A stretch of DNA of 64,000 nt from Escherichia coli (GTDB lineage Bacteria; Pseudomonadota; Gammaproteobacteria; Enterobacterales; Enterobacteriaceae): assembly GCF_017348835.2 (NCBI RefSeq), contig NZ_CP071375.1. One strand, given 5' to 3'. The notes beneath the pieces were generated by a model, which was not told where the DNA came from, ran no database searches, and saw only the letters and a list, made by a program, of their open reading frames with translations. Below, one piece after another: positions 426 through 12,900 of this stretch. The number at the start of each line of letters is the position of its first letter. The first letter of the stretch is position 1. The translations under genes were made by a program, and so were the position numbers.

Positions 426-2591
426 ATGGCAGAACAGGCAGCGGCGGACCTGTTTGGTGCGTTGCCGGAACCGTCAGGTCTGGTTAAAGCCGCAGTAGCT
501 GCTGCGCAGGCTGCCGCTGCAGCAGCAGGGATCCCGGATATGGCTGGTGCAGTTCAGGATGCGGCGGCGTCGATTGCTGCCGGTGGACCGGGGGCGCATA
601 ACGTCACAGTAAGTGGTAGTGCGGTGCCGCCGCAGCTGCTTTTGTTTGCAGGCATGAATGGTTCGGAAGGGCTTGGAAACCTGTTTTCCTACACAGTACA
701 GCTTAAAACCCCGGATACCCTGAACCTCGGATATGTCTCCCCCGCAGCCAACCTGCCGCTCAAGCCGATGGTGGGCAAAGACCTGTGCGTCAGTATCGAA
801 CTGGACGGCGGCGGCAAACGGCATATCAGCGGGCTGGTGACAGCGGCGCGGGTGGTGGGCTATGAGGGCCGCTCGGTAACGTATGAATTACGCCTTGAGC
901 CGTGGCTGAAACTGCTGACCCATACCAGCGACTACAAAGCGTTCCAGAATAAAACCGTGGTGGATATTCTCGATGAAGTACTGGATGAATATTCCTTTCC
1001 GGTGGAAAAGCGGCTGGTGGAAAATTATCCACCCCGCGCCTGGCAGGTGCAGTATGGTGAAACCGACTTCGATTTCATCCAGCGCCTGATGCAGGAATGG
1101 GGGATTTACTGGTGGTTTGAGCACAGCGAGAACAGCCACACGCTGGTGCTGGCGGATGCCATCAATGGTCATAAAGCGTGCCCTGACTCGCCGCTGGTGG
1201 AGTGGCACCAGGAAGGGCTGAAACTGGACAAGGAATTTATCCACACCATTACGGCCAGTGAGAGGCTGCGTACTGGAAAGTGGGTGATGGACGATTTTGA
1301 TTTTATGAAGCCTCGTTCGCTGCTTAAAAGTACCGTGGCTAGTCCGCGTGATACCGGTCATGCTGAATACGAGCATTATGAATGGCCTGGTGATTACTTC
1401 ACTACGGGCGAAGGCGAGATGCTGACGCGCATTCGTATGGAAGCGCAGCGCAGCCCCGGCAGCCGGGCACATGGGGCAGGTCATATCCGCACCCTCATGA
1501 CGGGTTACACCTTTACGCTGATGAATCATCCAACGGCAGAGGTCAACCAGGAATACCTACTGGTACAGACCACGCTGTTTTTACGGGATAATGCGCAGCA
1601 CAGCGGTCAGGAGCAGCATTTTACCTATGTCACCACGTTTGAACTGCACCCCACCAGCGAAGTTTACCGCCCACAGCGAACCCTAAGCAAACCCCACACC
1701 AAAGGCCCGCAGAGCGCCATCGTCACCGGCCCGGCAGGGCAGGAAATCTGGACGGATAAATATGGCCGGGTGAAGGTGCAGTTTGGCTGGGACCGTTACC
1801 TGTACGATGCGGAACAGCCGTACACGCCGGTGGCCGCCATCACGGGGCGCGGAGAGAGCCGGAAAATCTGGTATTACCACACGGACCTGACGGGCACGGT
1901 ACAGGAGGTGACCGCGCCGGACGGGACGCTGGTGTGGGCGGGCTATCAGGCGGGATTTGGTGAAAACCGGGGCGACATCAGCAACAGCGGGGCGTACTTT
2001 GAGCAGCCGCTGCGGCTGCCGGGGCAGTATTATGATGAAGAGACGGGGCTGCACTATAATCTGTTCAGATATTATGCGCCGGAGTGCGGGAGGTTTATCA
2101 GTCAGGATCCGATTTCGATCCGTGGGGGGCTGAATCTTTACCGGTATGCGCCTAATCCGCTGAGATGGATTGATCCGCTTGGATTAGACTGGAATTATCA
2201 TTTAACAGATAGTGATGGTAAGGTTTATTATCATGGACGTGCAAGTGATAATGCGTCAATGGAAGATGTTGCCCGTCGTCACAGCAATACAACAGGAGCT
2301 GATAAGGCAAGATTTGGAGAAACAGATACCATGACACGAATAACTGAGCCGGGTACGCCAAAATTAACAGCACAAGGTGTGGAAGGTATTGCCATAGGTG
2401 ATAATACTATCGGGCGAAGAGCTGATAACGGTAATAGGGGTCGGGGTAATAATATTCGGGGTGTTAATCCCAATGCAACCAATGCTACTGAAAAACTAAA
2501 TGCGGGTAAAGAATTTTTAAATGGACGAATACCAAGTGAAATGACTGGTGAAACATTGACAGGTAAGGAGTATTTTGAATCAAAATGTTAA
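426..2591 (+). CDS. Chimeric VgrG N-terminal domain fused in frame to Rhs core C-terminus plus C-terminal toxin tip (CT1)
   Basis: 721-aa ORF. Residues ~70-455 carry VgrG motifs ([61 protein letters not shown]). From nt ~1800 the sequence becomes Rhs core ([21 protein letters not shown] ... PxxxxDPLGL, motif at 2172-2186), followed by a ~135-aa AT-rich unique tip. The true start may lie downstream of 426. Confidence 0.7.
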
Positions 2592-3463
2592 AATTAACCG
2601 ATGTAAATAAAAATGCATTAAGAATACTTAAAAAATATAACGTGCTGGCAGAAGGTGACATAATAAGAGGTCATCCATTAAGTGAGCGGGATTTGAAATA
2701 TGTTGAGGCGCATTGTATTACAACTGAAGAACGAGCCTTTTTAAATGAAAAAGGTTTGGGGTTCGGATTTATTTCTGTGACTCATGATGAAGCATTAAGA
2801 GATTCGTTTACATATTTTAAATCTTCTAATAAAAATGATGTGACAGCTTCTTTTCTGGTGAGCCTGAGTAGTGCCAGATTAGACTACAGAAGTGGATTGT
2901 CTGCATTTGCAATTATGCAAACAATGCCGATGCATGGCTTTGAACCAAATCAGGCTTCTTTTTGTAAAGTATGTTCCGCAGAAAAATATAAAAAGCATTT
3001 TGATCTAACCAGCTTAAATCAGACTCGTTTCTTTAGTGGTTCTCTAGCAGTCTTTAAAACTCCTTATGAAATTTCTTTTTTTCTGGAGCAACAATCAAAA
3101 TTGGAAGTCGTTCAGCCAACCGAAAAAGATTTCTCTATCTTTAATGCGATTTTGAAAATAATTGTTGACGCAGAATCTGGCGAAAAACTGACATCAATAA
3201 TTAAAAAAATTAGAGCGATTGATGGCTTCAGGATAACTACAGATCAGTGTCGATGTCTTCTGGAAACGCTGGGATTTTGTGGGATTCTGGAAACGAAGGA
3301 ACACAAAGGGTATCTGACTTACTTTACTAATCCTGGACTGGCTCCGAGTAAATCTCATAGTTCTAACTGGGCCTATCCGGTTGATTTCTGGACCGGAGGG
3401 GATGGAATAAATCGCGAAGCGTTAAAATTCTGGTTTGGTGAATATAAAGAAATTGTTATCTGA
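2585..3463 (+). CDS. Putative immunity protein for CT1 (292 aa, no recognised family)
   Basis: Start codon overlaps the CT1 stop (aATGTTAA); AT-rich like the toxin tip; position immediately after an Rhs CT is typical for immunity genes. Confidence 0.55.
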
Positions 3464-4020: not shown

Positions 4021-4097
4021 TAAGGCAACCTCCGATAAGTAGGCGTTAAAACCACCACCGAAGAGACCAATCTTACGGGTGGTGGAACCGGGCGGAG

Positions 4098-6932
4098 TTG
4101 GTCTTACCGGCCTTATCGGATACCGGCGCATCTTTCGATGCCACCGCCCGGCCCACCATTGAGGTACAGCCGTGCGTGCAACACAAAAAAGACGCTGGCG
4201 CGTCATGTGTCGCCGATAAGACTTATTCAGGAGACCAATCCCGACGCCTGATTTTGCAGACGCGGCATAACGATACAACGATCGCGAAATGGCGACAAAC
4301 CCCTTTCCCGGAAGGCGGCTCGCAAAATCAGAAATATCACAGGGAAAGACAGAGCGCCGCAACGCGGCGGGATGTACCGCTTCACGTACAACGAAAACCA
4401 TTTTCCGGTAGCGGTGGAACTCCCCGGCGAACGCAGGTAACGCTGGAATACGACACCCTGAGCCGGGTGGTGAAAGAGACGGACCCGGCAGGCCGGGTGA
4501 CACAGACGCAGTGGAACGGCAGTTTTGCTGAAATCACGCGCCGGGCACTGGATGACGACCACGTATGGAAGGCGGATTACAACGAACACGGCCAGGTGAT
4601 ACGGGAGACGGACCCGGAAGGGCGCGTCACGCGCTACGGGTATGATGAACAGGGGCTGGCGGTCAGCCGCACGGATGCGCGGGGCGGCGAGGCTGCGCTG
4701 GCGCATGATGCGCGCGGCCAGCTGAGGCGTTACACCGACTGTTCAGGGCGTGCCACGGGTTATGAATACGATGAAGACGGCAACCTGACGGTGGTGACGG
4801 ACGCGGAGGGGAAAACGGTACGTATCCGCTATAACCGTCTGGGACTGCCGGAGACGGTAAATCATCCCGGTAAACAGCAGGACCGTTACACGTGGAACGC
4901 GCTGGGGTTACTGAGCAGCCACCGTCGCATCACAGGCAGTGTGCAGTCCTGGCAGTATACGCCGCGCGGTCTGCTGGCGCTCCACGTAGATGAAGAGAAA
5001 CGGGAGACGCGCTGGCATTATACCGCGGAGGGATGGATTGCCAGTCTGAGCAACGGCAACGGAGCGCTTTACCGGTTCAGTCACGATGCGGACGGACGGC
5101 TGACGGGAGAACAGCGCCCGGACGGTCTGATACGGATGTTTGTGCTGAATGCGGGCGGGTATCCGGTCATCATCCAGACGCAGGGTACAGAAGGCGGGGG
5201 GCGCAATGAACAGCAGGAGCGTGACGCGCTGGGCCGCCTGCTGCGCAGTGACACGCAGCACAGTACACGGACCTTCAGCTACAACCGTCTTGACCAGATA
5301 ACGGAAGTGACGCTCACCCCGACGAAAGAAGGGGAACGGCTGCACCACATGCAGGCGGACACGGTGCGCTTTGCGTATGACCGCAGCGGCTGGCTGACGG
5401 CAGAGCACAGCGTGCACGGCAGCATAAAATATCAGCGTGACGCGCTGGGCAATCCCACCGATATCACGTTGCCGGACGGGCAGCATCTCAGTCATCTTTA
5501 CTACGGCAGCGGACATCTGCTCCAGACGGCACTGGACGGTATCACGGTCAGCGAATATGAGCGTGACAGTCTGCACCGTCAGGTGATGCGCACGCAGGGG
5601 AAACTGGCGACGTTCAGCGGCTACAACGCCGACAACCGGTTAAGCTGGCAGCGCAGTCTGCCAGGTGGCAGCCAGAATCCACAGCAGACCGGTAACCCCC
5701 CGGCGCAGAACGACAGCGTGACGGCGCGGGACTATATCTGGAATGCGGACGGTGAGGTCGGCGGCATCAATGACAAACTGCGCGGTTGCCTGGTGTTCAG
5801 CTATGACCGCAGCGGCTGGCTGACCAGTCGCACGGGTCAGATGTACGACCATGACCATTATTATTACGACAAAGCGGGCAACCTGCTGACGGACGAGTAT
5901 CAGAGCGCGGTGATGGATAACCGCCTGCCGGGCTACGGGCGTGACCGTTACCGCTATAACGAATGGGGCGAACTGACAGAGCGCAGGGACCAGCAACTGG
6001 AGTGGAATGCGCAGGGCCAGTTAACGCGGGTCATCAGCAGCAACAGCGAGACGCGGTATCAGTATGATGCGCTGGGCAGGCGTATCAGCAAGGCGACCAG
6101 CAATCTCCATACCGACCGGGGAGAACGAAGCCGGACAACGTTTGTGTGGGAAGGGGTCCGGCTGTTGCAGGAGACAACGTGGCAGGGAAAGCGGACGTAC
6201 CTGTACGACGCGGAACAGCCGTACACGCCGGTGGCCGCCATCACCGGGCGCGGAGAGAGCCGGAAAATCTGGTATTACCACACGGACCTGACGGGCACGG
6301 TACAGGAGGTGACCGCGGCGGACGGGACGCTGGTGTGGGCGGGCTATCAGGCGGGGTTCGGAGAAAACCGGGGCGACATCAGCAACAGCGGGGCGTATTT
6401 TGAACAGCCGCTGCGGCTGCCGGGGCAGTATTATGATGAAGAGACGGGGCTGCACTATAATCTGTTCAGATATTATGCGCCGGAGTGCGGGAGGTTCGTA
6501 AGCCAGGATCCGATTTCGATCCGGGGTGGTCTGAATCTTTACCGGTATGCGCCGAATCCGATTACTTGGATCGATCCGTGGGGATTGGCAAAGGGGGATT
6601 ATGGTAAAATGCCTACGTTCCCTGGTTGGCAGAAACATCATAATATTCCACAAAATATGGCTACTCATTCGGCAATTGTTGACTCTGGATTTGATATACA
6701 TAATAGTCGTAACATTACAACCTTGCCAAAAACTGGAAGTATAGATACTGCCAGAACAGTGCACAGTGGAATGCACACAGGAGATTATGACAGGATGGTA
6801 AAAAATGCTTTAGATCAAATTGACTCGTTGAATGCTTCCCCTGAGATCAAAAAAATGCATATAGAAGCCTTATCTGATGATATTGGCAATAAATTGAGAA
6901 CAAAACAAATTACGTTAAATGCTGCATGTTGA
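4098..6932 (+). CDS. Orphan rhs fragment (N-terminally truncated core with YD repeats) with toxin tip CT2
   Basis: 944-aa ORF; YD-repeat Rhs core similarity begins near nt 4330 with a frame break just upstream. Core ends at DPWGL (6573-6587), then a ~115-aa tip containing WQKHHNIPQ and a downstream His (HSGMHTGDY), possibly an HNH/AHH-type nuclease. Confidence 0.7.
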   Translation: MVLPALSDTGASFDATARPTIEVQPCVQHKKDAGASCVADKTYSGDQSRRLILQTRHNDTTIAKWRQTPFPEGGSQNQKYHRERQSAATRRDVPLHVQRKPFSGSGGTPRRTQVTLEYDTLSRVVKETDPAGRVTQTQWNGSFAEITRRALDDDHVWKADYNEHGQVIRETDPEGRVTRYGYDEQGLAVSRTDARGGEAALAHDARGQLRRYTDCSGRATGYEYDEDGNLTVVTDAEGKTVRIRYNRLGLPETVNHPGKQQDRYTWNALGLLSSHRRITGSVQSWQYTPRGLLALHVDEEKRETRWHYTAEGWIASLSNGNGALYRFSHDADGRLTGEQRPDGLIRMFVLNAGGYPVIIQTQGTEGGGRNEQQERDALGRLLRSDTQHSTRTFSYNRLDQITEVTLTPTKEGERLHHMQADTVRFAYDRSGWLTAEHSVHGSIKYQRDALGNPTDITLPDGQHLSHLYYGSGHLLQTALDGITVSEYERDSLHRQVMRTQGKLATFSGYNADNRLSWQRSLPGGSQNPQQTGNPPAQNDSVTARDYIWNADGEVGGINDKLRGCLVFSYDRSGWLTSRTGQMYDHDHYYYDKAGNLLTDEYQSAVMDNRLPGYGRDRYRYNEWGELTERRDQQLEWNAQGQLTRVISSNSETRYQYDALGRRISKATSNLHTDRGERSRTTFVWEGVRLLQETTWQGKRTYLYDAEQPYTPVAAITGRGESRKIWYYHTDLTGTVQEVTAADGTLVWAGYQAGFGENRGDISNSGAYFEQPLRLPGQYYDEETGLHYNLFRYYAPECGRFVSQDPISIRGGLNLYRYAPNPITWIDPWGLAKGDYGKMPTFPGWQKHHNIPQNMATHSAIVDSGFDIHNSRNITTLPKTGSIDTARTVHSGMHTGDYDRMVKNALDQIDSLNASPEIKKMHIEALSDDIGNKLRTKQITLNAAC

Positions 6933-6947
6933 ATAACGAGGGAATAT

Positions 6948-7538
6948 ATGATTTATTTTTTATCTGATAAAAAAAATACCTTCGGGTTGTTGCATTATGA
7001 TCATAAAACTTCGATCGACTACACAGTATTTAATGAGGGGGTTAGCATAACAGGAATAGACATTAATATTAAATATACATCAAACAATAAAAATGATTTA
7101 AAACGGCTCGAAAAGTGTAACATTATAGAAACGACAGGTCCGACATTGATAAATAATAAGATTAGACATGTTTTTGAAAAATATGCAAGCAATGCGGTTG
7201 AATTTTTTGATGTAGACATTAACGATGATATAGATTTATCAAGGAAGTTTTGTGCGATTAATTTATTATGGGTCTTACCATGTTGTGATATGGAAAAGAG
7301 TGAATTTACATTAAGTAATTTCGATCTTGCCAATCCTAACTATATGTTTATGTATAAAGTTCTAAAAAATGATATTAATAGAGAGGTGGATATATTTCGG
7401 TGTAAGGAGCAGCATACTGAAATTGTTGTAAGTGAAGGAGTTAAGCAAGCATGTATGGACGCGGGAATTAAAGGATTGCGTTTTTGTACGGCTATTGATT
7501 TAACTCCAAAAAATAGATCTGAGTGTGTATTTATTTAA
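6948..7538 (+). CDS. Putative immunity protein for CT2 (196 aa)
   Basis: AT-rich ORF 15 bp downstream of the CT2 stop, same strand. Confidence 0.5.
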   Translation: MIYFLSDKKNTFGLLHYDHKTSIDYTVFNEGVSITGIDINIKYTSNNKNDLKRLEKCNIIETTGPTLINNKIRHVFEKYASNAVEFFDVDINDDIDLSRKFCAINLLWVLPCCDMEKSEFTLSNFDLANPNYMFMYKVLKNDINREVDIFRCKEQHTEIVVSEGVKQACMDAGIKGLRFCTAIDLTPKNRSECVFI

Positions 7539-7559
7539 TATATATGTATCACGCGGTGC

Positions 7560-9656
7560 GGGTATGACGAACAGTTCCTGCCGGAGACGGTCAGCCACCC
7601 CGGTAAACAGCAGGACCGTTACACCTGGAACGCACTGGGGTTACTGAGCAGCCATCGTCGCATCACGGGCAGTGTGCAGTCCTGGCAGTATACGCCGCGC
7701 GGGATGCTGGCGCGCCATACGGATGAAGAGAAACGGGAGACGCGCTGGCAGTACACCCCGGAAGGGCTGGTTGCCAGTCTGAGCAACGGCAACGGAGCGC
7801 TTTACCGGTTCAGTCACGATGCGGACGGACGGCTGACGGGAGAACAGCGCCCGGACGGTCTGATACGGATGTTTGTGCTGAATGCGGGCGGGTATCCGGT
7901 CATCATCCAGACGCAGGGTACAGAAGGCGGGGGGCGCAATGAACAGCAGGAGCGTGACGCGCTGGGCCGCCTGCTGCGCAGTGACACGCAGCACAGTACA
8001 CGGACCTTCAGCTACAACCGTCTTGACCAGATAACGGAAGTGACGCTCACCCCCACGGAAGAAGGGGAACGGCTGCACCACATGCAGGCGGACACGGTGC
8101 GCTTTGCGTATGACCGCAGCGGCTGGCTGACGGCAGAGCACAGCGTGCACGGCAGCATAAAATATCAGCGTGACGCGCTGGGCAATCCCACCGACATCAC
8201 GTTACCGAACGGGCAGCACCTCAGCCATCTTTACTACGGCAGCGGGCATCTGCTCCAGACGGCACTGGACGGTATCACGGTCAGTGAATATGAGCGTGAC
8301 AGTCTGCACCGTCAGGTGATGCGCACGCAGGGGAAACTGGCGACGTTCAGCGGCTACAACGCCGACAACCGGTTAAGCTGGCAGCGCAGCCTGCCAGGTG
8401 GCAGCCAGAACCCACAGCAGGCCGGTAACCCCCCGGCGCAGAAAGACAGCGTGACAGCGCGGGATTATATCTGGAACGCAGACGGTGAAGTCGGCGGCAT
8501 CAATGACAAACTGCGCGGTTGCCTGGTGTTCAGCTATGACCGCAGCGGCTGGCTGACCAGTCGCACGGGTCAGATGTACGACCATGACCATTATTATTAC
8601 GACAAAGCGGGCAATCTGCAGACGGATGAGCATCAGGGAGCGGTGCCGGATAACCGCCTGCCGGGCTACGGGCGTGACCGCTACCGCTATAACGAATGGG
8701 GCGAACTGACAGAGCGCAGGGACCAGCAACTGGAGTGGAATACGCAGGGCCAGTTAACGCGGGTCATCAGCAGCAACAGCGAGACGCGGTATCAGTATGA
8801 TGCGCTGGGCAGGCGTATCAGCAAGGCGACCAGCAATCTCCATACCGACCGGGGAGAACGAAGCCGGACAACGTTTGTGTGGGAAGGGTTCCGGCTGTTG
8901 CAGGAGACAACGTGGCAGGGAAAGCGGACATACCTGTACGACGCGGAACAGCCGTACACGCCGGTGGCGGCCATCACGGGGCGCGGAGAGAGCCAGAAAA
9001 TCTGGTATTACCACACGGACCTGACGGGCACGGTACACGAGGTAACCGCGCCGGACGGGACGCTGGTGTGGGCGGGCTACCAGGCGGGATTTGGCGAAAA
9101 CCGGGGCGACATCAGCAACAGCGGGGCGTACTTTGAGCAGCCGCTGCGACTGCCGGGGCAGTACTTTGACGAAGAAACAGGGCTGCATTACAATCTGTTC
9201 AGGTATTATGCGCCGGAGTGCGGGAGGTTCGTAAGCCAGGATCCGATAGGGTTGCTTGGTGGGCTGAACTTATATGCTTATGCGCCTAATCCGCTGTCAT
9301 GGATCGATCCGTTAGGTTTGACTCCATGTGCAAATGGGGGGAATGCTAAAAAACATGGTGGCACAGGACATAATAATTTTATTGATAATCTTATTGCGGA
9401 TGCTCGCAGTCAGGGTGCTACAAATATCAGGAAAAACCAATGGCAGGTAGATGTTAATGGAAATGTTGTTGGTAAAAATAGACCGGATGTTCAATTTGAT
9501 TTAAATGGTAAACATTATAATATTGAGGTTGATACAACAATAAAAGGCAGCGTTGGTCACCAAAATACTATACCTACACTTGATCCCAACTCAAGAAATA
9601 CATTTTGGCTAATTGATGACTTAGGGAATATTTTAAATGGCCACTCAACCATCTGA
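7560..9656 (+). CDS. Orphan rhs fragment with toxin tip CT3
   Basis: Rhs core similarity starts ~7560 (ORF-track start 7674). DPLGL at 9306-9320, then a ~110-aa tip with RPDVQF ... NIEVDTTIK, possibly a PD-(D/E)xK-like nuclease. Core is near-identical to the next fragment at an offset of 2586 bp. Confidence 0.7.
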   Translation, partial: GYDEQFLPETVSHPGKQQDRYTWNALGLLSSHRRITGSVQSWQYTPRGMLARHTDEEKRETRWQYTPEGLVASLSNGNGALYRFSHDADGRLTGEQRPDGLIRMFVLNAGGYPVIIQTQGTEGGGRNEQQERDALGRLLRSDTQHSTRTFSYNRLDQITEVTLTPTEEGERLHHMQADTVRFAYDRSGWLTAEHSVHGSIKYQRDALGNPTDITLPNGQHLSHLYYGSGHLLQTALDGITVSEYERDSLHRQVMRTQGKLATFSGYNADNRLSWQRSLPGGSQNPQQAGNPPAQKDSVTARDYIWNADGEVGGINDKLRGCLVFSYDRSGWLTSRTGQMYDHDHYYYDKAGNLQTDEHQGAVPDNRLPGYGRDRYRYNEWGELTERRDQQLEWNTQGQLTRVISSNSETRYQYDALGRRISKATSNLHTDRGERSRTTFVWEGFRLLQETTWQGKRTYLYDAEQPYTPVAAITGRGESQKIWYYHTDLTGTVHEVTAPDGTLVWAGYQAGFGENRGDISNSGAYFEQPLRLPGQYFDEETGLHYNLFRYYAPECGRFVSQDPIGLLGGLNLYAYAPNPLSWIDPLGLTPCANGGNAKKHGGTGHNNFIDNLIADARSQGATNIRKNQWQVDVNGNVVGKNRPDVQFDLNGKHYNIEVDTTIKGSVGHQNTIPTLDPNSRNTFWLIDDLGNILNGHSTI

Positions 9657-10221
9657 TAATAAAAAATTAGTGTTTGCTGTAGTGAACAGTGATTTTAATG
9701 ATATAGAAAGAACTATCCATAATGGATTGAACTGGCCGAGTGAACCAATAAGTAGTCGAAAACTTATTGAGGAAATACACTTGACTATTCAACGTGGTGG
9801 GGTCTTGCCGTCCGAGGGGGTTTTCTATTATCCGTGTATAAATGACAGCAAATTAATTTTTCTGTCTAATTTATCTGATGGATGGGACTCTTTACTTTAT
9901 TGCCTGTCAAAACAGAATAAATCTAGCTATCTACTGTTTAGGTTATTGATGGGGGAATACCCTCTGATGGAAATGAGTTTTATAGAGTCAGGGAAAACAA
10001 TACGTTTAATTAGAGTGATAAAAGAAAATAAATGGATTTTTTATGAGGTCGGGGAACCGTTATGGTTTGAAGAAAAGGAAAACTATTCAAAAAGAAGAAT
10101 CGCAGATAGAATTACTTATGATCTCTTACTCTCCTATTCACGGAAAAATGGCATTGACTTTGATTCCCCCGCATTTTTTAAAACGGAAAAAGAATCACTA
10201 TGGTTGAATGAAATACGATAG
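9637..10221 (+). CDS. Putative immunity protein for CT3 (194 aa)
   Basis: Overlaps the CT3 stop by 20 bp; AT-rich. Confidence 0.5.
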   Translation: MATQPSDNKKLVFAVVNSDFNDIERTIHNGLNWPSEPISSRKLIEEIHLTIQRGGVLPSEGVFYYPCINDSKLIFLSNLSDGWDSLLYCLSKQNKSSYLLFRLLMGEYPLMEMSFIESGKTIRLIRVIKENKWIFYEVGEPLWFEEKENYSKRRIADRITYDLLLSYSRKNGIDFDSPAFFKTEKESLWLNEIR

Positions 10222-10234
10222 TTTATTTAAATAA

Positions 10235-10272
10235 AAAGCCGGAAAAGAAATTAAACTTTCCCGGCTTTTTTA
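10235..10272. terminator. Hairpin plus T-tract, likely bidirectional intrinsic terminator
   Basis: aaagccgg ... ccggcttttttatt between the immunity-3 stop and the convergent SymE-like gene. Confidence 0.5.
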
Positions 10273-10276
10273 TTAT

Positions 10277-10457
10277 TTAACTCTCGTTCAGCACACTAAA
10301 CATCCCGTCCCGCATCCCCTTAACTGCCTGTTTAACCTGATAAAGCTCCCTGCGCAGTTCCTGTACTTCGTTGTTATCCGCAAGCAGGATCAGACATCCC
10401 TCCGAGATCTTCACGGTAACGCCCGTGCCGATCTCAAATCCCGCTTCTCTCAGCCAT
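10277..10457 (-). pseudogene. SymE-like toxin gene, 5'-truncated by the adjacent rhs fragment boundary
   Basis: C-terminal 60 aa (AKWLREAGFEIGTGVTVKISEGCLILLADNNEVQELRRELYQVKQAVKGMRDGMFSVLNES) resemble SymE ([28 protein letters not shown]). Similarity ends where rhs core sequence starts at ~10458. Confidence 0.55.
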
Positions 10458-12335
10458 TTGGCGCTGAATGCGGGCGGGTTTCCGGTCATCATCCAGACGC
10501 AGGGCACAGAGGGCGGGGTGCGTAATGAGCGGCAGGAGCGTGATGCGCTGGGCCGCCTGCTGCGCAGTGACACGCAGCACAGTACACGGACCTTCAGCTA
10601 CAACCGTCTTGACCAGATAACGGAAGTGACGCTCACCCCCACGGAAGAAGGGGAACGGCTGCACCACATGCAGGCGGACACGGTGCGCTTTGCGTATGAC
10701 CGCAGCGGCTGGCTGACGGCAGAGCACAGCGTGCACGGCAGCATAAAATATCAGCGTGACGCGCTGGGCAATCCCACCGACATCACGTTACCGAACGGGC
10801 AGCACCTCAGCCATCTTTACTACGGCAGCGGGCATCTGCTCCAGACGGCACTGGACGGTATCACGGTCAGTGAATATGAGCGTGACAGTCTGCACCGTCA
10901 GGTGATGCGCACGCAGGGGAAACTGGCGACGTTCAGCGGCTACAACGCCGACAACCGGTTAAGCTGGCAGCGCAGCCTGCCAGGTGGCAGCCAGAACCCA
11001 CAGCAGGCCGGTAACCCCCCGGCGCAGAAAGACAGCGTGACAGCGCGGGATTATATCTGGAACGCAGACGGTGAAGTCGGCGGCATCAATGACAAACTGC
11101 GCGGTTGCCTGGTGTTCAGCTATGACCGCAGCGGCTGGCTGACCAGTCGCACGGGTCAGATGTACGACCATGACCATTATTATTACGACAAAGCGGGCAA
11201 TCTGCAGACGGATGAGCATCAGGGAGCGGTGCCGGATAACCGCCTGCCGGGCTACGGGCGTGACCGCTACCGCTATAACGAATGGGGCGAACTGACAGAG
11301 CGCAGGGACCAGCAACTGGAGTGGAATACGCAGGGCCAGTTAACGCGGGTCATCAGCAGCAACAGCGAGACGCGGTATCAGTATGATGCGCTGGGCAGGC
11401 GTATCAGCAAGGCGACCAGCAATCTCCATACCGACCGGGGAGAACGAAGCCGGACAACGTTTGTGTGGGAAGGGTTCCGGCTGTTGCAGGAGACAACGTG
11501 GCAGGGAAAGCGGACATACCTGTACGACGCGGAACAGCCGTACACGCCGGTGGCGGCCATCACGGGGCGCGGAGAGAGCCAGAAAATCTGGTATTACCAC
11601 ACGGACCTGACGGGCACGGTACACGAGGTAACCGCGCCGGACGGGACGCTGGTGTGGGCGGGCTACCAGGCGGGATTTGGTGAAAACCGGGGCGACATCA
11701 GCAACAGCGGGGCGTACTTTGAGCAGCCGCTGCGGCTGCCGGGGCAGTATTATGATGAAGATACGGGGCTGCACTATAATCTGTTCAGATATTATGCGCC
11801 GGAGTGCGGGCGGTTTATCAGTCAGGACCCGATAGGGCTGGCGGGAGGAATAAACCTATATGCTTATGCGCCTAATCCGCTAAGTTATATTGATCCTCTT
11901 GGGCTTTGTAAATTAAGGGGAAGCGATGGGCGCTACAGAAGTGCACAGAATATTCAGGAAGAAATAGGCGGCCTACCCAATTTTGCAGGAAAAACTCCAG
12001 GAGAAATACGACAAACTTTGCGTAATCGAGGTTATTCGTCGGTACAAGCGTATAGTGGAGGAGAGGTCTGGACAAAAGCATTACCTGACGGAAATACTGT
12101 TGCAGTGAGGCTTGATCCGGCAAATCCTCGCTCACCTTCACATTATGCTGATGCTGTACCTCATGCTCATATTGAAACAGTTCCAACATCCAGTGTTTCT
12201 AATGGGAATTATCGCCCGCGAGACGTGACTGGCAGGCATACTGCCACTGGTGGGGTTTCTGATCGAGGAACAAATCCGAATCATAACGCTGATGTTTACA
12301 TTCCAATGTCTCCGGGACGATTCCCATATGATTAA
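10458..12335 (+). CDS. Orphan rhs fragment with toxin tip CT4
   Basis: Rhs core similarity from ~10458 (ORF-track start 10371 is a read-through of the SymE antisense). DPLGL at 11892-11906, then a ~143-aa unique tip with no recognised family. Confidence 0.7.
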   Translation: MALNAGGFPVIIQTQGTEGGVRNERQERDALGRLLRSDTQHSTRTFSYNRLDQITEVTLTPTEEGERLHHMQADTVRFAYDRSGWLTAEHSVHGSIKYQRDALGNPTDITLPNGQHLSHLYYGSGHLLQTALDGITVSEYERDSLHRQVMRTQGKLATFSGYNADNRLSWQRSLPGGSQNPQQAGNPPAQKDSVTARDYIWNADGEVGGINDKLRGCLVFSYDRSGWLTSRTGQMYDHDHYYYDKAGNLQTDEHQGAVPDNRLPGYGRDRYRYNEWGELTERRDQQLEWNTQGQLTRVISSNSETRYQYDALGRRISKATSNLHTDRGERSRTTFVWEGFRLLQETTWQGKRTYLYDAEQPYTPVAAITGRGESQKIWYYHTDLTGTVHEVTAPDGTLVWAGYQAGFGENRGDISNSGAYFEQPLRLPGQYYDEDTGLHYNLFRYYAPECGRFISQDPIGLAGGINLYAYAPNPLSYIDPLGLCKLRGSDGRYRSAQNIQEEIGGLPNFAGKTPGEIRQTLRNRGYSSVQAYSGGEVWTKALPDGNTVAVRLDPANPRSPSHYADAVPHAHIETVPTSSVSNGNYRPRDVTGRHTATGGVSDRGTNPNHNADVYIPMSPGRFPYD

Positions 12336-12346
12336 TGTGAGGTTTT

Positions 12347-12610
12347 ATGAATATCCGAAATCAATATAATGAAGCCTTAAATAAATTAGAAGTTGATGTT
12401 AATGATGGTTTGAGAGATTTAATAAACATATATTGTGTGGCTATTGATTCTTTTGAAAATGATATCGTTGACTCGATTGCTTTATACGTGATTGATATGG
12501 GAAATAAAGATACTTGTCGATATCTACAAGAAGTCTTATCAGAGAATGAAGATCCTTATTTAGTAAAAGAATTTAATGCATGGATAAAAGAAATTAAGAA
12601 AAAATATTAA
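12347..12610 (+). CDS. Putative immunity protein for CT4 (87 aa)
   Basis: AT-rich ORF 11 bp after the CT4 stop. Confidence 0.5.
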   Translation: MNIRNQYNEALNKLEVDVNDGLRDLINIYCVAIDSFENDIVDSIALYVIDMGNKDTCRYLQEVLSENEDPYLVKEFNAWIKEIKKKY

Positions 12611-12615
12611 AATAA

Positions 12616-12655
12616 AAGCCGGGAAGGTTATAAAATCTTCCCGGCTTTTTATTTT
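12616..12655. terminator. Intrinsic terminator hairpin (9-bp stem gccgggaag/cttcccggc) with T-tract
   Basis: Perfect inverted repeat followed by tttttattttt. Confidence 0.6.
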
Positions 12656-12900
12656 TAATTCTCGTTCAGTACACTAAACATCCCGTCCCGCATCCCCTTA
12701 ACCGCCTGTTTAACCTGATAAAGTTCCCTGCGCAGTTCCTGTACTTCGTTGTTATCGGCAAGCAGGATCAGGCAGCCTTCCGAGATCTTCACAGTAACGC
12801 CCGTGCCGATCGAAAATTCCGCTTCTCTCAGCCATTTGGCGCTGATTTTGATCACCGGCGTGTCGCTGCTGTTGGGCAGATATCCTACGGTACAACGGCG
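12655..12900 (-). CDS. SymE-like toxin homologue (AbrB-fold type I toxin family), possibly defective at its start
   Basis: 66-aa track ORF begins at a GTG; the SymE-like frame extends further upstream (TPEVTISKTQRRCTVGY...) with no in-frame ATG, while an ATG sits in another frame. Confidence 0.5.
   Translation of the reverse strand, partial: RRCTVGYLPNSSDTPVIKISAKWLREAEFSIGTGVTVKISEGCLILLADNNEVQELRRELYQVKQAVKGMRDGMFSVLNEN

Follow-up and report, generated by a model that had tools for sequence, protein, structure and literature searches.

An orphan Rhs tip of Escherichia coli with a predicted restriction-endonuclease-like fold and a putative cognate immunity gene

Introduction

Is the short C-terminal tip of an orphan Rhs gene a nuclease toxin of the PD-(D/E)xK (restriction-endonuclease-like) kind, and what could it do for a strain in which the gene carrying it begins inside the Rhs core? 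This question is raised by a 64,000-nucleotide stretch of an Escherichia coli genome (contig NZ_CP071375.1; hereafter the window), in which an open reading frame (ORF) at 7674–9656 on the + strand ends in a 111-residue tip called CT3 (9321–9656 including the stop; codons 9321–9653, stop codon 9654–9656). Over the compared stretch, the window is identical to the chromosome of E. coli PE164 (NZ_CP114128.1), a pig isolate. A preliminary description of this DNA had read a PD...(D/E)xK motif in the tip and had called it, with reservation, a DNase-type toxin. Judging by the sequence and its conservation, by the predicted fold, and by synteny and the sharing of the cassette between strains, we consider it probable that the region holds an intact Rhs cassette with a nuclease tip of restriction endonuclease (REase) fold and a specific immunity protein, and that the orphan serves as a reserve.

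A toxin–immunity cassette in an orphan Rhs module

The ORF 7674–9656 (+) starts with a GTG codon at 7674 and is translated into 660 residues. Its larger part (7674–9320, +) is an orphan Rhs core fragment, which is matched by the RHS_repeat, RHS and Rhs_assc_core models and has neither a PAAR domain nor the N-terminal shell. The core ends in PNPLSWIDPLGL (9285–9320, +), the PxxxxDPxGL boundary motif between Rhs core and variable tip, and the Rhs_assc_core match stops at residue 549. The tip (TPCANGG...NGHSTI) follows directly after PNPLSWIDPLGL, and the GC content falls from ~0.60 to ~0.33 at the boundary. The tip contains the peptide NRPDVQFDLNGKHYNIEVDTTIK, which the preliminary description had quoted exactly, with the correct letters and position within 9321–9656, as is evident from the translation.

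Immediately downstream, and on the same strand, lies a gene for a 194-residue protein (9637–10221), the putative cognate immunity gene. Its ATG at 9637 is inside the toxin ORF, so that the two overlap by the last 20 nucleotides of the latter. We inspected the downstream gene at seven further loci carrying the toxin domain: E. coli A20, Gilliamella, two Bacteroidota contigs, two metagenome contigs and Cellvibrio. The gene directly 3′ of the toxin domain belongs to the same family of ~195–205 residues in six of the seven (phmmer E-values of 1e-13 to 1e-133 against the 194-residue protein), and in Cellvibrio the neighbor is different. The loci sharing the immunity homolog are otherwise unrelated, and across loci the toxin stop codon is usually overlapped by the immunity gene. 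Pfam has no match for this immunity family, and all sources label it “hypothetical”, among them Escherichia marmotae, Leminorella, Salmonella and Gilliamella. The YD/RHS repeats, the core ending in PxxxxDPxGL, the variable tip and the downstream immunity gene, by which Rhs orphan modules are recognized, are all present here. At the level of sequence, 9321–10221 is an intact toxin–immunity cassette of an Rhs polymorphic toxin system.

The cassette was found in 3 of 5426 complete E. coli genomes. Between the window and strain A20, 3 of the 336 tip nucleotides differ (one amino acid change, T86I), as do 7 of the 585 nucleotides of the immunity gene, whereas the 600 nucleotides of Rhs core upstream of the tip are unrelated between the two; homology starts at about the boundary motif. 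In A20, the tip caps a 1526-residue PAAR-Rhs protein, with vgrG and a DcrB-type (Eag-like) gene upstream and, after the cassette, the same symE-like gene as in the window. Because the near-identical A20 cassette sits on an unrelated Rhs core, the cassette is, as far as sequence comparison goes, a mobile unit that is swapped between different Rhs backbones, and at least one version of it sits on a complete, presumably deliverable effector.

The closest copy outside Escherichia was found in Gilliamella sp. Occ4-3 (LZHR01000083.1, 707–1916), with 77% identity in the toxin and 65% in the immunity protein. It is located in a bee-gut orphan array, where it adjoins orphan tips of the AHH and GIY-YIG types. 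This copy suggests that the cassette has recently been exchanged between distant gut Gammaproteobacteria.

The tip represents a widespread toxin family

A word-indexed search with the tip recovered only nine relatives. Searching 1.84 billion cluster representatives (clustered at 50% identity) with a profile identified 814 clusters at E ≤ 1e-3, including 416 at E ≤ 1e-10, and residue conservation was calculated from the best 157 representatives. In all of these 157, the domain stands at the very C-terminal end of the protein, and the median number of residues beyond the match is five. The carriers of the domain are diverse, including prePAAR/PAAR-Rhs, PT-HINT-Rhs, SpvB/TcdB-type Rhs, DUF6443-Rhs and transglutaminase-Rhs proteins, and the named sources include Bacteroidota, Chitinophagaceae, Cellvibrio, Gilliamella, Anaerosporobacter and Escherichia. 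Source annotations of family members read “hypothetical” or “RHS repeat-associated core” and nothing else. Scans of the immunity protein, of the tip and of the entire ORF against Pfam and NCBIfam matched nothing but Rhs core domains. Given the C-terminal position, the Rhs-type carriers, the lack of any consistent Pfam match and the uninformative source names, the tip is a genuine and widespread polymorphic-toxin domain that has no Pfam or NCBIfam model.

Among the 157 representatives the family is recognized by the signature N-x-G-x4-H-G-x3-H-[ND]-x2-I-D ... I-R-K-N-Q-x-Q-V-D-x2-G-N-x-V-G-x-N-R-P-D-x-Q-[YFW]-[DN]-x2-G-x-H-x3-E-x-D-x5-S-x2-H ... N-D-P. H12, H17, R37, K38, N39, Q40, Q42, H65 and H80 (residues are numbered within the 111-residue tip, and all are encoded on the + strand) are each conserved in at least 95%.

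Predicted fold

AlphaFold2 returned a predicted local distance difference test (pLDDT) score of 88.4 when given nine sequences. With 78 sequences the score rose to 96.8, with a predicted template modeling score of 0.88, and all five models reached at least 95.5. The model runs from a helix (15–30) through a strand (34–38), a short hairpin, two strands (57–61 and 64–71) and a second helix (74–87) to two final strands (92–98 and 104–110). It contains the α-β-β-β-α-β core, a mixed sheet flanked by two helices, and the conserved Asp stands at the N-terminus of β2, since P55-D56 directly precedes that strand. Nearly all of the top 60 structural matches are members of the PD-(D/E)xK superfamily. The matches to the model include DUF820/TT1808, NucS, VRR-Nuc, Cas4, BpuSI and N.BspD6I, and further R2 RLE, RAP domains, TnsA and tRNA-splicing endonuclease subunits. 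A Foldseek search against the PDB gave no match below E 1e-3, though its outcome is qualitatively in agreement. An REase-like fold is confidently predicted for the tip, and the tip is linked to the PD-(D/E)xK superfamily on account of the predicted structure rather than its sequence. The same fold had been proposed in the preliminary description on weak grounds; the AlphaFold2 model agrees with it and shows no unrelated fold.

The spacing of candidate catalytic residues is also shared with known enzymes. The distance of 13 residues from D56 to E69 equals that from D42 to E55 in Sulfolobus Hjc and that from D79 to D92 in the La Crosse virus endonuclease (the sequences were checked against the PDB entries), pairs that we take to be catalytic in these two enzymes. 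When the family profile was aligned with an Hjc alignment by hhalign, the PD fell on P41-D42, E69 on E55 and D71 on K57, at an insignificant E-value of 0.6. Against the La Crosse endonuclease, the E-value was 0.4 and the register was unrelated. We count neither alignment as a sign of homology.

Conserved residues of the putative active site

The motif that had been read in the tip is right in part. P55-D56 (9483–9488, +), directly before strand β2 (57–61), is conserved in 100% and 99% of the representatives, respectively, and E69 in 99%. E69 belongs to E69-V-D71 (9525–9533, +) on strand β3 (64–71), the expected site of (D/E)xK, where D71 is Asp in 98% and Glu in 1%. The PD and the glutamate hold. 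The lysine of the proposed motif does not: it is K75 (9543–9545, +), which lies four residues past D71 in the loop between β3 and α2 and corresponds to profile position 73, with 22% K, 21% R and 21% S. K75 is not conserved and is probably non-catalytic.

The pattern itself carries little information. The strict form, PD-x(5-30)-[DE]-x-K, is absent from the tip, which has E69-V-D71 in place of any (D/E)xK. When the tip was shuffled 20,000 times, the loose form, PD...[DE]-x(1-6)-K, arose in 11% of the shuffles; it also occurs in 25 of the 145 stop-free segments of at least 100 residues in the window, and taken alone it is no better than chance. The assignment of the PD and of E69 stands above chance because of the conservation across the 157 representatives, not because of the pattern match.

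Several other conserved residues are candidates for a place in the active site. H12-G-G-x-x-H17 (HGxxxH; 9354–9371, +) leads into helix α1 (15–30), and its two histidines (96% and 97%) are candidate metal or substrate ligands. R37-K38-N39-Q40-x-Q42-x-D44 (9429–9452, +) occupies strand β1 (34–38) and the following hairpin, with R in 99%, K in 97%, N in 96%, both Q in 99% and D in 90%; K38 or R37 may provide the positive charge of the canonical lysine. H80 (9558–9560, +; 95%), on helix α2 (74–87), is a candidate general base or metal ligand. Replacement of the lysine is tolerated in the PD-(D/E)xK superfamily, as seen in BamHI (ExE) and BglII (ExQ).

Proposed mechanism, substrate and alternative explanations

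We infer the following course of catalysis, cleavage and delivery. The tip would be a minimal PD-(D/E)xK domain and is expected to cleave phosphodiester bonds in a metal-dependent manner. D56 at the start of β2 and E69/D71 on β3 would form its active site, with an Asp in place of the usual lysine, and the near-invariant H17, H65, H80 and R37/K38 could supply the remaining ligands, a positive charge or a general base. On a full PAAR-Rhs protein, as in A20, the Rhs shell would enclose the tip, which would be released by cleavage at the DPxGL boundary, a cleavage that is established for other Rhs effectors. Once released, it would be delivered on the VgrG spike through a type VI secretion system (T6SS) and would be lethal to the recipient through cleavage of its nucleic acid. 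The overlapping 194-residue gene would encode the specific immunity protein, and the orphan in PE164 would stand in reserve for recombination and confer immunity to strains firing the same toxin.

Several observations weigh against this reading. No significant sequence or profile similarity to any established PD-(D/E)xK family was found with Pfam, NCBIfam, PDB profiles or hhalign. No Pfam family was matched by more than two of the 78 relatives scanned at E ≤ 10, and the PDB matches from sequence and profile searches, to an oxoacyl-ACP reductase, the Prp protease and a designed NTF2 protein, were noise. The position of the canonical lysine in (D/E)xK is occupied by Asp (D71), so that this element is missing from the tip. 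Moreover, the copy in the window starts inside the core, and an N-terminal PAAR or delivery domain with VgrG and chaperone is absent from it. With no delivery domain, and with the main vgrG and rhs apparently deleted, the cassette may never be deployed from PE164.

With respect to the substrate, DNA appears somewhat more likely than RNA, because most characterized T6SS effectors of the PD-(D/E)xK type are DNases (PMC9635880). The DNase-type label given earlier is, however, not established. A tip with the same fold and the same toxin–immunity logic could instead cut RNA (tRNA, rRNA or mRNA), perhaps as a Mn-dependent enzyme with a His ligand, as in cap-snatching endonucleases, or in a metal-independent manner through His acid/base catalysis. 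RNA-cutting enzymes are among the closest structural neighbors of the model, the REase-fold CdiA toxins include tRNases, and the tip family is unusually rich in invariant histidines. We take RNA seriously as an alternative substrate, though we consider it the less likely one. A more far-reaching version, to which we give a rather small chance, is that the family forms a distinct PD-(D/E)xK branch that has lost the catalytic lysine and uses a histidine-assisted site, H17...D44...P55-D56...E69-x-D71...H80, like that of the Mn-dependent viral cap-snatching endonucleases; such a branch would target RNA, be paired with a new immunity fold and extend from Bacteroidota to Enterobacteriaceae.

It could also be argued that the tip is a silent, decaying remnant whose resemblance to PD...E...K arose by chance and has no function. 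The loose pattern is indeed common by chance, the cassette is rare among complete E. coli genomes, and the ORF is devoid of PAAR and of most of the Rhs shell; on the identical PE164 record, the PGAP annotation gives 7572–9327 as an incomplete RHS pseudogene that ends at the tip boundary. But the tip ORF is open to its stop codon with no frameshift and keeps every conserved residue of the family, including all the near-invariant ones, it differs by 3 nucleotides (one amino acid) from the A20 copy on a full-length effector, and the accompanying immunity gene, itself intact, is conserved between phyla. A functionless remnant is very improbable in our judgment. Hardly any weight is given to a different nuclease fold, whether a His-Me finger (HNH) or an RNase of the barnase, EndoU, colicin-E5 or RelE type. 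Before modeling, the pattern of a helix followed by strands and the abundance of conserved H, N, R, K and E residues were compatible with such folds, and a neighboring orphan does carry an AHH (HNH-type) tip; a His-Me finger or barnase-like fold is already disfavored.

Comparison with known toxins and nucleases

An REase-fold nuclease tip on an Rhs carrier would be of a known kind. Tox-REase-1 to -10 (PMC3482391) and PoNe, TseT, TseV, IdrD-CT and Aave_0499 (PMC9635880) are likewise C-terminal REase-fold toxins on Rhs, PAAR, HINT or TcdB-type carriers, and the Tox-REases and T6SS PD-(D/E)xK effectors share with the tip a dedicated downstream immunity gene and the exchange of cassettes between backbones. 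According to Zhang et al. (2012; PMC3482391), D-[EQ]xK is retained in all ten Tox-REase families, whereas the tip family has D...ExD together with HGxxxH, RKNQxQ and two further invariant histidines. Neither the tip nor any of the 78 relatives matched the Tox-REase Pfam models (PF15646–PF15650) at E ≤ 10. The published Tox-REase signatures, ten in all, do not fit the tip either, and its immunity family is absent from those listed for the Tox-REases. The RPD, KNQ and HGG signatures of the tip were not found in Zhang et al. (2012; PMC3482391). With no model match and no fitting signature, we rejected membership of the tip in Tox-REase-1 to -10, PoNe, TseT, TseV or IdrD-CT. The “Rhs-CT3” of E. 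coli described by Ma et al. is a Tox-REase-3 domain, and has nothing but the label in common with CT3.

Two other named toxin families were considered. Ntox10 was rejected because its model matches no more than the stretch ahead of the toxin in two proteins of the Tc type. Both are very long SpvB/TcdB-Rhs carriers, in which the N-terminal half of Ntox10 is matched before the toxin domain (P0075, 2769–2846, E 2e-4; P0107, 2999–3093, E 5e-4), in either case below the gathering score; the matched part of the model may represent a reusable pre-toxin linker and not the toxin part. Ntox17 (PF15524) gave one match among the 78 relatives, with an E-value of 0.095 that is at noise level for so many scans. 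This family is described as “mostly beta; ExD, H” (Zhang et al. 2012, PMC3482391), which resembles the tip signature.

Two groups of known nucleases that were compared with the tip differ from it in several respects. Archaeal Hjc (1hh1, 1gef, 2wcw) has Lys where the tip has Asp, and is a dimeric, structure-specific DNA repair enzyme rather than a secreted toxin. The cap-snatching endonucleases of bunyaviruses and hantaviruses (5ize, 2xi5, 7ewu) keep the catalytic Lys, cut capped RNA and are ~180 residues long with extra helices; no sequence relationship was detectable between them and the tip family. Among REase-fold toxins themselves there are tRNases, and RNA is cut by several of the structures that match the model most closely.

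What is new is the tip family, which comprises at least 814 clusters with no Pfam, NCBIfam or PDB representative and for which there is now a high-confidence predicted fold, a set of candidate catalytic residues and a matched, unannotated immunity family. This is enough for two new profile models, which would annotate hundreds of toxin–immunity pairs. With Asp at the position of the canonical lysine and four invariant histidines, the family offers a test case of how far an REase active site can drift.

The T6SS locus of PE164

The region is the end of a T6SS cluster (T6SS-1), downstream of tssF and tssG, and contains four consecutive Rhs C-terminal modules. Module 1 consists of a vgrG-Rhs chimeric ORF (426–2591, +) and a downstream ORF of 292 residues; module 2 (4098–7538) of an orphan Rhs whose tip is of the AHH nuclease type, together with an Imm11 gene; module 3 of the orphan with CT3 and the 194-residue ORF (7674–9656 and 9637–10221, both +); and module 4 (10371–12335) of an orphan and an ORF of 87 residues. 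Core repeats of 300 nucleotides (e.g., 8931–9230) are common to the modules and 92–99% identical. Within each module, the GC content is ~0.60 in the core and ~0.30–0.37 in the tip and downstream gene. The locus is a standard Rhs layout with orphan toxin–immunity cassettes. The Rhs orphan modules of Salmonella and E. coli (PMC3150448, PMC3967940, PMC7043789) are likewise truncated cores with tip and immunity gene, arrayed after a main rhs and sharing repeats that permit recombination, and the same arrangement is seen here at 4098–12610. Unlike at those loci, the upstream “main” gene here is a vgrG-Rhs deletion chimera.

In this chimera (426–2591, 721 residues), the N-terminal part of VgrG (Phage_GPD, residues 81–389) is joined to the late Rhs core (RHS motif, 481–513) and an unannotated tip. 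PGAP annotates it as a truncated vgrG pseudogene and a short RHS coding sequence. It looks like the product of a deletion that removed the end of the VgrG spike and nearly all of the main rhs; if this is true, the primary Rhs effector may be gone from this T6SS locus. The CT3 orphan lacks a delivery domain, and upstream of it vgrG/rhs survives as an apparent deletion chimera; the roles of the orphan in PE164 are therefore probably immunity and, through the shared core repeats, a recombination reserve. What the cassette chiefly predicts for PE164 is immunity to strains that, like A20, are able to fire the toxin. The paper on PE164, found by accession and strain name, mentions neither T6SS nor Rhs.

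Other features of the locus

A sigma-70-like site, TTGACG-17-TACAAT (10/12), was observed at 9166–9194 (+), within the conserved Rhs core and ~130 nucleotides 5′ of the tip, and in-frame TTG codons are present at 9252 and 9318. A promoter and terminator scan of 7300–10700 showed no enrichment over shuffled sequences (7 sites versus 4.0 ± 1.7). The site at 9166–9194 could allow internal expression of the tip and immunity gene, as reported for Salmonella orphans.

An ORF that resembles the SymE family of type I toxins (SymE_toxin Pfam match) follows the CT3 cassette on the opposite strand (10277–10573, −), and another follows the CT4 cassette of module 4 (12646–12855, −). These antisense ORFs run into the 5′ end of the orphan Rhs fragment that comes next. 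A repeat of 200 nucleotides in the SymE-like ORF is 93% identical to its second copy at 12646–12845, and a SymE fragment was also found near the Cellvibrio homolog (L007, 7076–7171). SymE-like genes may travel with Rhs tip–immunity cassettes.

Between module 1 and the second orphan, and overlapping the 5′ end of the ORF 4098–6932, 4075–4263 (−) contains matches to the Rfam C4 antisense RNA (RF01695, 70.6 bits) and, beside it, the isrK Hfq-binding RNA (RF01394, 65.8 bits), both above the gathering score. C4 antisense RNA and isrK are normally found in P1/P7-type phages and Salmonella islands. Finally, the tips and downstream ORFs of modules 1 and 4, CT1 (~2100–3463, +, with the 292-residue ORF) and CT4 (~11820–12610, +, with the 87-residue ORF), match no Pfam toxin or immunity domain and may represent further unannotated toxin–immunity pairs.

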